Both the position numbers and the translations under genes were made by a program. From contig OY282360.1 of assembly GCA_958295675.1 (NCBI GenBank), forward strand, positions 125,810 through 189,809: 64,000 bases of DNA, written 5' to 3'. The stretch is from Minisyncoccota bacterium (GTDB taxonomy: Bacteria; Patescibacteriota; Minisyncoccia; Phycocordibacterales; JABAAK01). This document shows, one piece after another, positions 4,326-40,580 of the stretch. The stretch's first letter is position 1. Each line of letters begins with the position of its first letter. The notes below the pieces were generated by a model. That model had not been told where the DNA came from. It searched no databases and was given only the letters and a program-made list of their open reading frames with translations.

Positions 4326-5180
4326 ATGGCAGTAAGAAAATATAAACCAACAACACCCGGAGTACGCAGTACAGTGGTGCCGCTGTACAAACACCTCTTA
4401 TCACAGGGAAATTCACCAAAAAAAATGCTGATCAAAGATACGCATCGCAGTGTCGGACGCAATAGTGATGGTCGCATTACCATGCGGCATCGTGGCGGCG
4501 GTCATAAACGACGCTTCCGCGATATTGATTTTCTACAGGATAAGTTTGACATACCGGCAAGGATAGAAACAATTGAGTATGACCCGAATCGATCCTCGTT
4601 TATCTCACTTATTTGTTACAAAGATGGTGAGCGACGGTATATCCTCACACCTGATGGATTGCATGTGGGTGATACGGTTATCACATCAGAAAAGGCACCA
4701 TTGAAACCGGGCAACAGAACGGTATTAAAAAATATTCCAGTCGGCACCGCGATCTATAATGTGGAGTTAAAAATGCATGGTGGTGCAAAAATTGCCCGAT
4801 CTGCGGGAAATACAGCAACATTACTCGGGCACGACGGCATATTCGCGCATATTAAACTCCCATCACAGGAGGTACGCAAGATGCCTGTTACTTGTTATGC
4901 TTCAATCGGGTCAGTCGGTAATAAAGAACACCATCTGCGTGTGATCGGTAAGGCAGGTCGTCATCGTTGGATGGGTAAACGACCGACTGTCAGGGGTAAT
5001 GCTATGAACGCGGTTGACCATCCGCACGGCGGAGGTGAGGGCAGGCAGGGACGCGGACGCAAGCGCGCGGTGACGAAATGGGGTAAACCGTCCGGTAAGG
5101 GACAGAAAACAAGGAAACCAAAACGGTATTCAGATGCACACATCGTTCGCCGACGCCAATTGATGCGCAGAAAACGATAG
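4326..5180 (+). CDS. rplB: 50S ribosomal protein L2
   Basis: Full-length L2 with GGGHKRRFR and HPHGGGEG motifs. Confidence 0.95.
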   Translation: MAVRKYKPTTPGVRSTVVPLYKHLLSQGNSPKKMLIKDTHRSVGRNSDGRITMRHRGGGHKRRFRDIDFLQDKFDIPARIETIEYDPNRSSFISLICYKDGERRYILTPDGLHVGDTVITSEKAPLKPGNRTVLKNIPVGTAIYNVELKMHGGAKIARSAGNTATLLGHDGIFAHIKLPSQEVRKMPVTCYASIGSVGNKEHHLRVIGKAGRHRWMGKRPTVRGNAMNAVDHPHGGGEGRQGRGRKRAVTKWGKPSGKGQKTRKPKRYSDAHIVRRRQLMRRKR

Positions 5181-5234
5181 AAAGACCATTTTTATTGATT
5201 TTTTTACTATTATTACCGCACAATAATCTAGGTA

Positions 5235-5263
5235 TTGCAATATTCATGTTTTCATGCTATGCT
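5235..5263 (+). promoter_or_regulatory. promoter-like element (TTGCAA-17-TATGCT) inside the rplB-rpsS spacer
   Basis: Hexamers with a 17-nt spacer, followed by a ~230-nt non-coding stretch ending in a strong hairpin. Confidence 0.3.
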
Positions 5264-5465
5264 GGTAAATAGATTGGGAAAGTGCCAATTGAGTGGCTTA
5301 GCCGCAAGCATATCCTGATTTGGCAGATTTGACGGGTTTGTAATTCCGTCATTTCTTTTCTTTTGAACTCAGAGTTGGAGGAAGAATGGTAAGGTCCATC
5401 ATGTCCGCAGTCCCCGAAGCAATTCACTGACCAAACGGCGCCGAGCGGCATCACCCTCAACCAAC

Positions 5466-5495
5466 CCCCCACCGAAACGAATGTTTCGGTGGGGG
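5466..5495 (+). other. perfect 13-bp stem hairpin (CCCCCACCGAAAC-GAAT-GTTTCGGTGGGGG), member of a CCCCACCGAA hairpin family
   Basis: Read directly from the sequence. No T-run follows on either strand. Related hairpins occur at 30036-30068 and 40594-40622. Confidence 0.6.
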
Positions 5496-5636
5496 ATTCT
5501 CATTTAATTACCCTTATGTGGAAATCACGATATTTGTTTAATGCCATTTTTTCTCATATCTAATAGGGGTATAAACTTGCAGAATATACAACCGTCCGCT
5601 ACCATATATAGTATTGCAGGAATAATGCAGTAAAGT

Positions 5637-8331: not shown

Positions 8332-8733
8332 ATGAAGATACAGAAAGGAGACACAGTTATGGTAATGAAAGGGTCCGACAAAAAGAAAGTCGGCAATGTA
8401 CTGCATGTTATACCGGACGATGAAAAAGTAATAGTCGCCGGTGTCAATATTCGCACAGCACATAAAAAAGCGCGGACACGCAATGAGAAAGGAACCATTG
8501 AAAAGAAAGAGAGACCGATTAGCATATCTAATGTTCTGGTTATTGATCCAAAGACAAAAGAGCCGTCACGAGTGCAATATACCGGCACCGGAAAGGAGAA
8601 GAAACGAATGACCAAAAAAAACGGCACAATGCTTGAGAAAAAACAAGCAAGAAAAAAGACGGCAAAGAAAACAGTCGTTGCGGCAAAAAGCGAAGAAGAA
8701 AAAAATAAACAAAAGGAACAAAAAGATATATGA
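8332..8733 (+). CDS. rplX: 50S ribosomal protein L24 with K-rich C-terminal extension
   Basis: KOW motif MKIQKGDTVMVMKGSDKKKVG. Confidence 0.9.
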   Translation: MKIQKGDTVMVMKGSDKKKVGNVLHVIPDDEKVIVAGVNIRTAHKKARTRNEKGTIEKKERPISISNVLVIDPKTKEPSRVQYTGTGKEKKRMTKKNGTMLEKKQARKKTAKKTVVAAKSEEEKNKQKEQKDI

Positions 8734-9275
8734 AAACAACAACAGACATAAAGATAGATAAGACATTTGAAATACTCAAAGATGTATTTTCATGGAGTAA
8801 TCCGATGCAAACAACCCGATTGGAGAAAATTGTTGTATCAACAGGTACAGGTCGTGTACGCAAAGAGAAACAAAAAACAGATCTTATACAGGATCGCTTG
8901 ACGGCAATAACCGGACAGAAACCCGCATTTCGAAAAGCTCGCCAGTCAATCGCTTCATTTAAGTTGCGTGAAGGTGAGACAGTCGGATATGCTGTTACAT
9001 TGCGCGGCAGAAAAATGCGTGATTTTCTGGATCGCCTGCTTAATATTTCAATTCCCCGCATGCGTGATTTTCGGGGCATACCCGAATCATCAGTTGATGA
9101 GATGGGAAATCTTACCATAGGTATTTCGGAACACATCATTTTTCCGGAAACACCGGATGAAAATATGCAGGACATCTTCGGTTTGTCAATCACTATCGTT
9201 ACTTCTGCGAAAAATAAAGAAGAAGCATCTAAATTTTTTGAACACATTGGCGTGCCATTCGTTCAAAAGACATAA
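8730..9275 (+). CDS. rplE: 50S ribosomal protein L5
   Basis: ITGQKPAFRKARQSIASFKLREG...NLTIGISEHIIFPE motif. Confidence 0.95.
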   Translation: MKTTTDIKIDKTFEILKDVFSWSNPMQTTRLEKIVVSTGTGRVRKEKQKTDLIQDRLTAITGQKPAFRKARQSIASFKLREGETVGYAVTLRGRKMRDFLDRLLNISIPRMRDFRGIPESSVDEMGNLTIGISEHIIFPETPDENMQDIFGLSITIVTSAKNKEEASKFFEHIGVPFVQKT

Positions 9276-9308
9276 AAAAATACACCACCAGCGAAGTAGT
9301 GGTGGCGT
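9274..9308 (-). terminator. intrinsic terminator (minus-strand sense) for small gene 9379..9561
   Basis: ACACCACC/GGTGGCGT stem with one mismatch. On the minus strand it is followed by a T7 run. It shares flanks with the 9676-9707 copy. Confidence 0.5.
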
Positions 9309-9378
9309 AATATGGTTCGGTGCAATCAATCACCGCACGCAACAATCTCAAACAGCATGGTGCAAAGAACCATTATGA

Positions 9379-9561
9379 TTAATTTGCTAATGCGGATTCA
9401 AAAAAGACCAAAAGAAGAAGGTGTCTCATAGATTCATCCCAGTCAAACACAAGGATGGATGCGCCTAAACAGATAACAGCTGTCAACCCTGTTACGACAC
9501 CAATCAGTAAAACCATGATACTGTTTAAAAAATAACCCGTGAGACGCGTCACTTTTTCCAT
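9379..9561 (-). CDS. small hydrophobic protein (60 aa, 1 predicted TM helix), antisense-embedded in the spc operon
   Basis: ATG preceded by a GGGGGA RBS. It has its own consensus promoter and terminator. No homology recognised. Confidence 0.5.
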   Translation of the reverse strand: MEKVTRLTGYFLNSIMVLLIGVVTGLTAVICLGASILVFDWDESMRHLLLLVFFESALAN

Positions 9562-9611
9562 CGTCGATCCCCCTAGTTTGTTTGCCGAAACCGTTTCAGC
9601 AATCTGATAAT

Positions 9612-9639
9612 ATTATATTAAATAAAATTATTTTGTCAA
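9612..9639 (-). promoter_or_regulatory. consensus sigma70 promoter on the minus strand (TTGACA-16-TATAAT)
   Basis: Perfect hexamers in the reverse complement. ~50 nt upstream of the 9561 start codon. Confidence 0.6.
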
Positions 9640-9675
9640 ATATAGTATGGTGGAGGTGGTATCCCACGAAAGGTA

Positions 9676-9707
9676 TAAAAAAATACACCACCTTCAAAAG
9701 GTGGTGT
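9676..9707 (-). terminator. intrinsic terminator (minus-strand sense) for small gene 9775..10032
   Basis: Perfect ACACCACC-TTCAAAA-GGTGGTGT hairpin followed on the minus strand by a T8 run. Paralogous to 9274-9308. Confidence 0.6.
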
Positions 9708-9774
9708 AATGGGTTTTCGGTGTAACCGGAGGGAGTGTCCTGACTTCTTCCAGTTACTGTGTGCAACAACAGCC

Positions 9775-10032
9775 TCAGGTGTCAAGCCACTCCAAATCAC
9801 GCTGCCGCCAGTATCTGTCAAGATACCCAACGAACGGAGTCCAGATACCGGCCCCAAGAATGATAAGAGCGGCACACAAGGCAATCGTCAGGTAGTTTTC
9901 GTGCGCTGAAACAATGGTGTGTTCAACACCAAAGATCAAAAACGTTCCAAGCATGGTCACAATCAACACGGCAAGGAATGCTGCGGCTCCTACCAAGACA
10001 CCGAGTGCGAACAGCGACATGAAATTTTTCAT
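9775..10032 (-). CDS. small hydrophobic protein (85 aa, 2 predicted TM helices), antisense-embedded in the spc operon
   Basis: ATG preceded by an AAGGAG RBS. It has its own promoter and terminator. Confidence 0.5.
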   Translation of the reverse strand: MKNFMSLFALGVLVGAAAFLAVLIVTMLGTFLIFGVEHTIVSAHENYLTIALCAALIILGAGIWTPFVGYLDRYWRQRDLEWLDT

Positions 10033-10093
10033 GTTTGGTTTCTCCTTTTCAGTGAGTTTTGCCTACTGAACCAGTTCCAGCAGGTCTATACAT

Positions 10094-10122
10094 ATAGTAC
10101 AAAAATAACTTTATTTTGTCAA
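10094..10122 (-). promoter_or_regulatory. sigma70 promoter on the minus strand (TTGACA-17-TACTAT)
   Basis: Shares the 25-nt block ttattttgtcaaatatagtatggtgg with the 9612-9639 copy. Confidence 0.55.
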
Positions 10123-10293
10123 ATATAGTATGGTGGGGTGAAACATCTCTCACACAGTTTTTTAAAATATGTTGCGTATTGCCAACTATGTGCTACCATA
10201 CGGATAACAGAGTAAATCCATAGAGTTTTCTTTGTGCGCGGTAAACACTGCGAGTAAAGACAATTGTATGCGGATATTGCCCTGTGTGAGTAT

Positions 10294-10563
10294 ATGGCAC
10301 GAAAAGCGCTTATAGCACGAAACGAAAAACGAATTCGATTGGCGATAAAATATGCAAAGAAACGAGCCGAATTGAAAGAGAAGGGTGATTGGGAAGGATT
10401 GCAAAAATTGCCGAGAAATGCATCTCCTGTTCGCATTCGCAATCGTTGTTTTATAACCGGTCGTCCGCGCGGGTACCTCCGTGCTTTCAATATGTCCCGC
10501 ATTTCTCTGCGTGAGCAGGCGGTAAAGGGATATATCCCGGGATTACGAAAGTCATCATGGTAA
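10294..10563 (+). CDS. rpsN: 30S ribosomal protein S14
   Basis: [13 protein letters not shown]...[13 protein letters not shown] signature. ATG at 10294. Confidence 0.9.
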
Positions 10564-30096: not shown

Positions 30097-30738
30097 CTAC
30101 GCGCCGACAACGACTTTCAAGTCGTTGTCGCGAGCAACCCGCAGCAGTTGACCGATGCCATTGACATCGACCAAACCGGCGGATCCAAGAACGGTCACCT
30201 CAGGATGATCTCCGGCGGTCACGAGCACCTGCAACGCATGCCGATCAGCAATGTTGCGTATGGCGGCATAGTCATGCTCGTTGAGAGGCGCCGCGATGAT
30301 GTTCCTGGCCATGAGCATAGGGACATCAAGTTCGGCTGCCAGATCGAGCAATTCGCTAAGGTCGCCGTTGGTCTGCGCTTCGGTATTGTCATGCGCCACC
30401 ACAACGACTTTCAAGTCGTTGTCGCGAGCAACCCGCAGCAGTTGACCGATGCCATTGACATCGACCAAACCGGCGGATCCAAGAACGGTCACCTCAGGAT
30501 GATCTCCGGCGGTCACGAGCACCTGCAACGCATGCCGATCAGCAATGTTGCGTATGGCGGCATAGTCATGCTCGTTGAGAGGCGCCGCGATGATGTTCCT
30601 GGCCATGAGCATAGGGACATCAAGTTCGGCTGCCAGATCGAGCAATTCGCTAAGGTCGCCGTTGGTCTGCGATTCTTCGGCCGCAAAAGCGACGGAACCG
30701 GCGAATGCCAGCGTGAAAATGGCAAGCAATTTGCCCAT
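30097..30738 (-). CDS. secreted protein made of two identical ~98-aa tandem repeats (signal peptide + 2 x repeat), GC-rich
   Basis: N-terminal signal peptide, AAGGAG RBS and a downstream terminator all sit on the minus strand. The plus-strand ORF 30061..30876 is its antisense shadow. Confidence 0.6.
   Translation of the reverse strand: MGKLLAIFTLAFAGSVAFAAEESQTNGDLSELLDLAAELDVPMLMARNIIAAPLNEHDYAAIRNIADRHALQVLVTAGDHPEVTVLGSAGLVDVNGIGQLLRVARDNDLKVVVVAHDNTEAQTNGDLSELLDLAAELDVPMLMARNIIAAPLNEHDYAAIRNIADRHALQVLVTAGDHPEVTVLGSAGLVDVNGIGQLLRVARDNDLKVVVGA
30107..30670. repeat. perfect tandem duplication, 294-bp period (30107-30376 equals 30401-30670)
   Basis: Identity over ~270 bp by direct reading; in-frame with the minus-strand CDS. 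Confidence 0.9.
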
Positions 30739-30923
30739 GAGTGTTTCTCCTTGAAAGAGGGTTTTGAAAGACCAGTTTTAGGAAAGGAAGGTGAAAATAC
30801 GCCTAGCATGGCGGTCTTTTACACCATCCGTTTCCGACTACTAATAAATATAGCACGGGGGGGGATTTGTCAATGACTATATAATATAGTATGGCATGTT
30901 TCAAGAAAAAGACACTGAAAACA

Positions 30924-40064: not shown

Positions 40065-40094
40065 TTGACAAATTGTCTATAATTATGGTATTAT
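40065..40094 (+). promoter_or_regulatory. sigma70-like promoter (TTGACA-18-TATTAT) in an AT-rich spacer
   Basis: Hexamers read directly; ~50 nt upstream of a GGAG RBS and the ATG at 40146. Confidence 0.45.
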
Positions 40095-40145: not shown

Positions 40146-40580
40146 ATGGTAGTAAGAGTCGTCGCCACGCACCCGCGGTGGCAAGTTATGAAGATGCTCT
40201 TCGTGAGCATGGTCAATTGGTTCGCCGCTCGACAGCAGCAGCATCAGCAGTGCGAAAATGGTGCCGTAACGGCACCCGCTATCGCTGCGGCACCCGAACC
40301 GGTAACGCCGCCACCGCCACTACCGTACCGTGGGCATGGTAAGACCTGGAAACAGGTCTACCGCGTGTACACGGCACGGCACGGATATCCCGATCGCGCC
40401 ATGGCGTACTTCATCGCCAAGGCAAACAAGGAGTGTTTGCTTGCGATGCTCCGTGACGAGGAGTTGCCGATGGAACATGTGTCCGTGCTCATGACGGACA
40501 GTCGTCCCAAGGTTTGCGTCACAGCTCATATTGTAGCGAATGCCCGCCGGAGCCGGAAGCAATGTGACGGTGCGGTCTAA
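40146..40580 (+). CDS. hypothetical GC-rich protein (orphan)
   Basis: GGAG RBS, its own promoter, and a terminator. ~60% GC versus ~45-50% in its neighbours. Confidence 0.45.
   Translation: MVVRVVATHPRWQVMKMLFVSMVNWFAARQQQHQQCENGAVTAPAIAAAPEPVTPPPPLPYRGHGKTWKQVYRVYTARHGYPDRAMAYFIAKANKECLLAMLRDEELPMEHVSVLMTDSRPKVCVTAHIVANARRSRKQCDGAV

Follow-up and report, generated by a model that had tools for sequence, protein, structure and literature searches.

Tandem antisense cassettes with small hydrophobic open reading frames between rplE and rpsN of a Kaiserbacteria-like Parcubacterium

Two antisense modules with duplicated regulatory shells

The S10-spc-type cluster of ribosomal protein (r-protein) genes is the most conserved gene cluster in prokaryotes, and its spc part canonically runs rplN-rplX-rplE-rpsN-rpsH and onwards as co-transcribed genes. 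In the 64-kb stretch of Minisyncoccota DNA analysed here (contig OY282360.1, positions 125,810 to 189,809; hereafter the window), rplE and rpsN are separated by a gap of 1,018 nt, which contains two minus-strand modules antisense to both genes (Table 1). Each module, or cassette, consists of a promoter, a 5' hairpin, a Shine-Dalgarno sequence (SD), a small hydrophobic open reading frame (ORF60 or ORF85) and an intrinsic terminator, and the insert cargo amounts to 0.86 kb. The original prediction of two minus-strand mini-genes of 60 aa and 85 aa at this site, organised as two autonomous antisense modules with a promoter, a small transmembrane (TM) ORF and a terminator, is borne out by the sequence anatomy; the SDs (GGGGGA and AAGGAG) and the promoters (TTGACA-16-TATAAT and TTGACA-17-TACTAT) are all present as it claimed. 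The gap between rplE and rpsN is real as well, with rpsN starting at 10294 and not at about 10290-10297. On the rplE side, the U-tract of the cassette 1 terminator abuts and overlaps the rplE stop codon.

Table 1. Features of the rplE-rpsN region, in window coordinates
Feature	Position	Strand	Remarks
rplE (uL5)	8730..9275	+	final gene of the r-protein block upstream; Pfam Ribosomal_L5 and L5_C, E = 1e-30
Cassette 1 intrinsic terminator	9276..9304	-	hairpin 9283-9304, U-tract 9276-9282
ORF60, hydrophobic 60-aa peptide	9379..9561	-	one long TM stretch, residues ~10-39; singleton orphan
ORF60 SD, GGGGGA	9568..9573	-	6 nt 5' of ATG; unpaired in predicted fold
ORF60 mRNA 5'-proximal stem-loop	9582..9602	-	predicted fold; homologous to the ORF85 5' hairpin
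Cassette 1 promoter	9612..9653	-	-10 TATAAT 9612-9617, -35 TTGACA 9634-9639, spacing 16; shared block 9629-9653
Junction J between the cassettes	9654..9683	.	rplE 3'-end relic, then U-tract of terminator 2
Cassette 2 terminator hairpin, 11 bp	9684..9708	-	followed by 7 U on the minus strand
ORF85, 85 aa	9775..10032	-	predicted two-helix membrane hairpin; orphan, in three near-identical genomes only
ORF85 SD, AAGGAG	10042..10047	-	9 nt 5' of ATG; unpaired in predicted fold
ORF85 mRNA 5'-proximal stem-loop, 9 bp	10062..10084	-	predicted fold
Cassette 2 promoter	10094..10136	-	-10 TACTAT 10094-10099, -35 TTGACA 10117-10122, spacing 17; shared block 10112-10136
Candidate rpsN promoter	10172..10199	+	TTGCGT-16-TACCAT with TGC (extended -10); oriented away from the cassette 2 promoter
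rpsN 5' leader, highly conserved	10200..10293	+	by comparison with L001, L006 and L018
rpsN (uS14), long non-zinc type, 89 aa	10294..10563	+	Pfam Ribosomal_S14; NCBIfam PRK08881, 111.9 bits, above cut-off

Duplicated regulatory shells surround unrelated ORFs, as had been proposed. The shared 25-nt promoter block, CCACCATACTATATTTGACAAAATA, occurs in exactly two copies in the window (0/100 shuffles matched), and the repeat stretches to 34 nt at 94% identity. Alignment of the two shells gives 100% identity for the -35 block, about 65-70% for the 5' untranslated region (UTR) and about 75% for the terminator with its flank. The terminators are paralogous, flanks included (22/24 nt shared), with -15.1 kcal/mol (z = -3.0) and 7 U on the minus strand for cassette 1 and -19.6 kcal/mol (z = -4.25) for cassette 2. 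No similarity was observed between the coding cores of ORF60 and ORF85, with a local DNA score of 17 against 16.8 ± 2.0 for shuffled sequences, and on this ground we dropped the idea that ORF60 is a frameshifted or diverged ORF85. A duplicated shell whose ORF appears to have been exchanged bears on how membrane proteins that are small or de novo come into being.

On both strands of the 64 kb, only the promoter of cassette 1 matches the sigma-70 consensus at 12/12 positions (rank 1), and the cassette 2 promoter is the third-best. The only other near-perfect match, TTGACA-18-TATTAT at 40065-40094 (11/12), lies upstream of a 144-aa gene (40146-40580). In the predicted folds, a 9-bp hairpin stands at the 5' end of both mRNAs, and neither the SD nor the AUG is paired. 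The 5' stem is maintained across four copies, through one double change and five one-sided compatible changes, with one break.

Additional copies of the promoter block were searched for and none was found in the window beyond the two; likewise, no further copy of the shell was present in the window, in a 20-kb stretch of the related contig L001 or at the other loci compared. A metagenome scan with a 20-nt promoter block returned 5 matches, all of them by chance in unrelated AT-rich contigs, and a viral scan with the block returned 0. The promoter at ~30.85 kb, which had been thought related, has only the 11-nt CCATACTATAT and TTGACA in common with the cassette block. It serves a 213-aa gene (30097-30738; promoter at 30845-30895, minus strand), and a perfect palindrome, ACTATATTATATAGT, lies just upstream of its TTGACA. 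This palindrome may be a regulator-binding site, of which a half-site would also precede the cassette promoters.

Cassette number varies between near-identical strains

The arrangement recurs in two ENA contigs. The independent 58-kb contig L001, whose L5 protein is 97% identical to the rplE product of the window, carries a single ORF85 cassette at the same place and in the same orientation within a 588-nt spacer; its ORF85 homologue is P0003 and its flanks are 92-100% identical to the window. Contig L002 (675 nt), from a third sample, carries P0002 and displays two tandem ORF85-type cassettes, and its inter-cassette junction is the junction J of the window with 2 differences. The two ORF85 copies of L002 differ at several positions and therefore do not represent a collapsed repeat. 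At one end of this contig (positions 1-60, plus-strand coordinates) lies a Nextera adapter, CTGTCTCTTATACACATCT; the last ~60 nt are contamination and unfit for comparison. The cassettes are specific to one species-level lineage of a Kaiserbacteria-like Parcubacterium, and they are strain-variable, with one or two per locus in near-identical strains. That the locus is an assembly artefact (a chimeric join or a misassembled repeat) is extremely improbable: it does contain repeats of 26-34 nt and the source genome is metagenome-derived, but the same rplE-cassette-rpsN order is found in L001, the inter-cassette junction is also found in the third, independent sample with copies that differ, and the earlier worry about a chimeric join at 9276/10290 is excluded by this recurrence.

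Junction J holds a relic of the rplE 3' end, AAAGGTATAAAAAAATACACC, which corresponds to the authentic end AAAGACATAAAAAAATACACC at 9266-9286, where ACA TAA are the last rplE codons. Because of this relic, we consider the second cassette to be an in situ tandem duplication, with a unit of ~480 nt that extended into the end of rplE. ORF60 takes the place of ORF85 in the rplE-proximal copy of the window, and its 5' UTR is similar to the one of the proximal L002 copy.

A history in three steps can be proposed. First, a module made up of promoter, 5' hairpin, SD, ORF85 and terminator would have come to adjoin the rplE stop codon directly, as in the L001 state. A tandem duplication of ~480 nt in situ would then have followed; the duplicated unit would have taken in the final ~10 nt of rplE and given rise to junction J, as in the L002 state. 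Finally, in the lineage of the window, the rplE-proximal core (about 9290-9627) would have been replaced, or have diverged beyond recognition, to give ORF60; the -35 block would have been kept, as would the flanks of the terminator.

Two classes of mobile structures were considered for the cassettes and rejected. An integron cassette array does not agree with the cassettes' own consensus promoters, with the r-protein neighbours, with the lack of an integrase nearby or with junction J being a duplication relic. An insertion sequence (IS) or a miniature inverted-repeat element was dismissed as there are no terminal inverted repeats at the modules, and neither the window nor the 20-kb stretch of L001 nor the other loci contain a further copy.

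The rplE-rpsN junction in relatives and the units of the cluster

The junction was fetched from 11 relatives, the closer ones via an L5 protein search and their contigs; a scan of the genome collection with L5 returned distant relatives only. The L5 protein places the organism among the Kaiserbacteria-like Parcubacteria/Paceibacterota. The junction is plain in only 2/11 relatives, while it is broken or holds other cargo in 9/11, and at least eight different states were counted across the 11 genomes, antisense genes among them. Besides L001 with its single cassette, L006 (L5 77% identical to that of the window) has a plus-strand gene for a 282-aa repeat protein followed by rpsN, and L011 (69%) an antisense 285-aa multi-TM gene followed by rpsN. 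Plain spacers of 135-141 nt are present in L010 and L019 (67-72%). In L003, the Saccharibacteria outgroup, the spacer measures the canonical 33 nt and S14 (4553-4738) is of the 61-aa zinc type; the window, with 1,018 nt compared to these 33 nt, does not display the short rplE-rpsN spacer of a canonical contiguous spc operon.

Other relatives show larger changes. In L007 (3544-5664) and L008 (3550-4815), whose L5 proteins are 74-75% identical to that of the window, a convergent recG abuts rplE with 0-3 nt between them; rpsN and rpsH are no longer adjacent, and the spc cluster is physically broken after rplE. In L009 (3968-6558) and L012 (3614-6558), whose L5 proteins are 70-72% identical to that of the window, very large plus-strand ORFs start directly after rplE, with >1,600 aa and >1,100 aa as called and no Pfam domains. 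In L018 (3646-5997; L5 73%), rpsN is preceded by a gene for a 384-aa protein with a weak match to a type IV secretion system (T4SS) pilin (E = 2e-4) and by an antisense gene for a 362-aa HTH_38 protein. The HTH_38 domain is typical of IS30-type transposases, and its presence here hints at mobile-element traffic through the junction.

Since the junction is broken or otherwise occupied in 9 of these 11 relatives, it behaves as an operon boundary and an insertion hotspot in the clade. The comparison does not support the earlier view of the modules as units embedded in an operon. Like chromosomal integration hotspots, the junction combines the same core flanks with highly variable cargo and occasional mobile-element genes (HTH_38 in L018); unlike the usual ones, it has r-protein flanks, and the cargo of the window is tiny and at least in part a local tandem duplication, not integrase-mediated. 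The split affects those who use r-protein synteny, in CPR (candidate phyla radiation) binning, curation and phylogeny, as a highly conserved cluster is divided at rplE-rpsN, and it bears on how r-protein stoichiometry holds without a single operon.

In the searched literature we found no description of a clade-wide split of the spc cluster at rplE-rpsN with variable cargo. It extends known phenomena, namely S14 isoform replacement and the loss of synteny after insertion. Brochier et al. are said to have reported horizontal transfer of rpS14 in 2000. The in-cluster S14 of the clade is the long non-zinc isoform of 89 aa, and the S14 type Z model of NCBIfam scores below its cut-off on the window rpsN product. 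The usual place of the long 89-aa S14 gene is outside the spc operon, which it joined through recombination in certain lineages (PMC8046335); this fits a recombinogenic rplE-rpsN junction. Recombination that exchanges short and long isoforms of S14 is known to occur in the rplE-rpsN-rpsH segment, and insertions between cluster units relax selection for synteny, after which disconnection follows (Brandis 2021, PMC8046335). The clade resembles these S10-spc-alpha rearrangements in its long 89-aa in-cluster S14 and in a junction that is broken or occupied in most relatives; it differs from the documented cases in Gammaproteobacteria and Bacilli, which are between-operon insertions or single-gene swaps, in that one CPR junction takes many states. 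The contrast between the 89-aa isoform of the clade and the 61-aa zinc type of L003 suggests an S14 isoform replacement at a junction that would later have become an insertion hotspot.

For the 7 genomes in which rpsN has stayed at this place, we aligned the 150 nt that precede the gene (mean column identity 42%). All 7 share an invariant TGnTAnnnT motif, mostly TGCTACYAT, which lies 50-110 nt before the rpsN start codon; in the window this extended -10 lies at 10191-10199, with TTGCGT 16 nt upstream. Because the motif is invariant, rpsN and the distal genes need not depend on read-through from rplE, and we infer that rpsN is probably expressed independently of it. The notion that the operon transcript must read through the cassettes is not supported by these data. 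The rpsN leader is identical to that of L001 at 71/71 aligned positions, against a neutral divergence of ~8%, and its motif GAGTWAATCCRYAGRGTTTTCTTTG ... GATATTGCCCTGT is common to the more distant L006 and L018. This leader is a candidate for an undescribed r-protein autoregulatory leader, responding to S14 or S8.

The GCTACCATA of the candidate rpsN promoter has only one other copy in the window, which immediately precedes rpsS and follows a second conserved gap, of 456 nt. This gap between rplB and rpsS (5181-5636) is 93% identical to L001, and its core at about 5277-5370 is nearly invariant. The gap contains a promoter-like TTGCAA-17-TATGCT on the plus strand (about 5237-5265), a GC-rich hairpin followed by T residues (about 5458-5500) and, at its end just upstream of rpsS, a 100% conserved TTGCAG-17-TACCAT. 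No Rfam match was obtained for it, and it may correspond to an undescribed non-coding RNA or leader with an internal promoter. From the sequence, the r-protein cluster appears divided into at least three units.

Coding status and possible roles of the cassettes

Protein relatives were searched with a word-indexed search of 5.8 billion proteins and, for the ORF85 alignment, with an exhaustive hidden Markov model (HMM) search of 1.84 billion representatives. ORF85 has as its only database relatives itself, P0003 (82% identity) and P0002 (88% identity); the only extra HMM match, P0125, is a 614-aa low-complexity tandem-repeat translation and was discarded as spurious. ORF60 matches only itself in the word-indexed search. 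For the two peptides, the best Pfam match (E = 0.027) is far below gathering, PHROGs gave E >= 0.014, NCBIfam gave nothing significant and PADLOC no match; for ORF60 taken separately, Pfam, NCBIfam and PHROGs gave no match that was significant or passed a curated cut-off (best E 0.03-0.04), and PADLOC had none. The AF2 model of ORF85 is a helical hairpin of two helices with a pLDDT of 73, for which Foldseek found no fold match in the PDB. Neither were viral relatives of the peptides found in a viral contig search, nor an RNA family in the insert or the rpsN leader with Rfam (gathering and E <= 10). An identity of the two peptides with SecE or SecG was dropped, as no profile signal was obtained, and no profile of holins or of phage or defence proteins matched above its threshold either.

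By codon usage, ORF60 and ORF85 both rank in the top 2% when set against stop-free off-frame stretches of comparable length, and they lie within the range of real genes. When the window is compared with L001, the signals of cassette 2 are conserved above the neutral rate: the terminator is identical at 34/34 positions and the promoter at 48/49, which amounts to 1 mismatch in 83 nt where ~6.6 are expected (Poisson P ~0.01), with a dS of 0.08-0.10 for rplE and rpsN. ORF85 is 92.2% identical, its 5' UTR 92.7% and its 3' UTR 80%. ORF85 evolves in a near-neutral manner (omega ~0.9). It displays no indels or stops in 3.3 copies, and replacements within the TM segments shift hydropathy by a mean delta-KD of +0.53 compared to -1.36 in simulations (P ~0.014); under neutral simulation, the absence of stops together with at most one polar residue entering a TM segment has a joint probability of ~0.056. 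From this comparison, openness and hydrophobicity are all that ORF85 retains. The locus is a compact natural case of expression signals under stronger selection than the ORF that they drive.

We hold with moderate confidence that the cassettes are two autonomous, monocistronic, strongly transcribed small membrane-peptide genes, tandem-duplicated in an insertion-tolerant inter-operon spacer hotspot. Judging from their signals, the modules are very probably transcribed and under selection for transcription, and the peptides are probably made and inserted into the membrane, but loosely constrained. Each module would fire from its near-consensus sigma-70 promoter, and the mRNA would open with a stabilising 5' stem-loop and an exposed SD and be translated into a TM peptide. 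Transcription would end at a strong hairpin with U7, the last terminator halting antisense transcription exactly at the rplE stop codon, while rpsN and the downstream genes would be served by their own extended -10 promoter, back-to-back with that of ORF85. If this holds, the cassettes are ordinary orphan small-membrane-protein genes, of which they offer a further example. Like other small membrane proteins (<100 aa, autonomous intergenic orphans), they combine an ORF with 1-2 TM segments with their own promoter, SD and terminator, lack homologues beyond close relatives and are weakly constrained beyond hydrophobicity. Unlike other such genes, they lie inside the ultra-conserved S10-spc cluster, have tandem paralogous shells around unrelated ORFs and are driven by promoters that are exceptionally near consensus for the genome.

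Several observations weigh against this interpretation. ORF85 shows no purifying selection on its amino-acid sequence, with pairwise omega values of 0.95, 0.54 and 2.0 (0.115 for rplE and 0 for rpsN), and the peptide may therefore be dispensable or not translated. Its variable sites are spread 13/10/8 over the codon positions, and 8/32 changes are synonymous where a transition-biased neutral simulation expects 10.2. At such divergence, an ORF as long as ORF85 would remain open under neutrality with P = 0.45, so that openness alone is weak evidence. For ORF60, which has no homologue, only the signals and the codon usage speak for a coding status. With respect to the neighbouring operon, the rpsN promoter is proposed at the motif level and is not called by a simple sigma-70 scan, because of its weak -35. 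Moreover, no good plus-strand terminator was found after rplE, either in the window or in the plain-spacer relatives; read-through and head-on encounters are therefore possible. From the sequence, read-through from rplE probably occurs and the modules may interact with operon transcription.

Alternatively, the strong antisense transcription itself could be selected and not the peptides. The modules could act as an insulator, as a head-on roadblock by which fewer transcripts from rplE would reach rpsN and the two r-protein units would be uncoupled, or through divergent-promoter supercoiling that boosts the rpsN promoter with its weak -35, ~50 bp behind the ORF85 promoter. The conservation of promoter and terminator well above neutral around a neutral ORF, the ranks of both promoters within the top three sigma-70 matches in the 64 kb, the plausible collisions after rplE in the absence of a terminator and the back-to-back arrangement of the ORF85 and rpsN promoters all speak for such a device. 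We nevertheless judge it unlikely. A pure transcription device would not need strong, well-spaced and unpaired SDs, ATG starts, genome-typical codons and a retained hydrophobicity. In addition, relatives lack such a module (L010 and L019) or carry different cargo in either orientation, and copy number is one or two between near-identical strains.

The same variability in presence, absence and copy number would be expected of neutral passengers or proto-genes in a tolerant hotspot, whose peptides have no selected function. The modules would then be DNA that arose or was acquired recently, either a mobile-element remnant or de novo ORFs that a strong promoter drives. An omega of ~1, the restriction of ORF85 to three near-identical genomes and of ORF60 to one, and a hotspot that takes unrelated cargo, including an HTH_38 protein as in IS30-type transposases, are consistent with this reading. 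It is improbable in light of the above-neutral conservation of promoter and terminator, the retained TM hydrophobicity (P ~0.014), a codon usage that is already genome-like and a 5' hairpin kept through compensatory change; besides, no inverted repeats, target-site duplications or transposase genes were found around the modules.

The original prediction also noted a likeness to type I toxin loci. On this reading, the peptides would be membrane toxins whose mRNAs are countered by antisense RNA. Type I toxins are typically <~60 aa with a single TM segment, and their loci have a dedicated antisense RNA gene, in cis or in trans, with a promoter and a terminator of its own, and an SD or start occluded in the 5' UTR. 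Like hok/sok, ldr/rdl, ibs/sib, txpA/ratA and bsrG/SR4, the cassettes encode small, hydrophobic, fast-evolving orphan peptides behind strong promoters, in tandem, intergenic and strain-variable in copy number. A convergent transcript could likewise pair with the cassette mRNAs, as the plus-strand rplE transcript would be fully complementary to them if it read through. Unlike these loci, the cassettes have no conserved antisense RNA gene that we could find: plus-strand hairpins have no U-tract, no conserved plus-strand promoter-terminator pair is present, the only plus-strand promoter-like site (9582-9611, 9/12) occurs in cassette 1 and is absent from the homologous copy in L002, and there is no Rfam match. 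Their SDs are exposed, behind a simple stabilising hairpin and not a translation-blocking fold. With regard to size, ORF60 (60 aa, one long hydrophobic stretch) fits, but ORF85 (85 aa, two helices) is longer than typical type I toxins, and neither peptide matches a known toxin family or a PADLOC model. Finally, a lethal peptide would be hard to tolerate behind a consensus promoter and a strong SD with no visible repressor. The likeness is therefore not upheld, and we regard a toxin-antitoxin-like locus as quite unlikely; its variant, in which the rplE read-through transcript is the antitoxin and ties the toxin to the activity of the ribosomal operon, finds no support.

A broader proposal would join several of these elements. 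The shell, made up of the -35 block, a 5' stem-loop and a terminator with a U-tract that overlaps the rplE stop, would be a reusable expression chassis lying next to the ribosomal operon, within which small hydrophobic ORFs are swapped or born de novo, and the cassette mRNAs would be titrated by rplE read-through, so that a toxin-like or growth-rate-sensing membrane peptide system would be coupled to ribosome synthesis. We consider such a system very unlikely.

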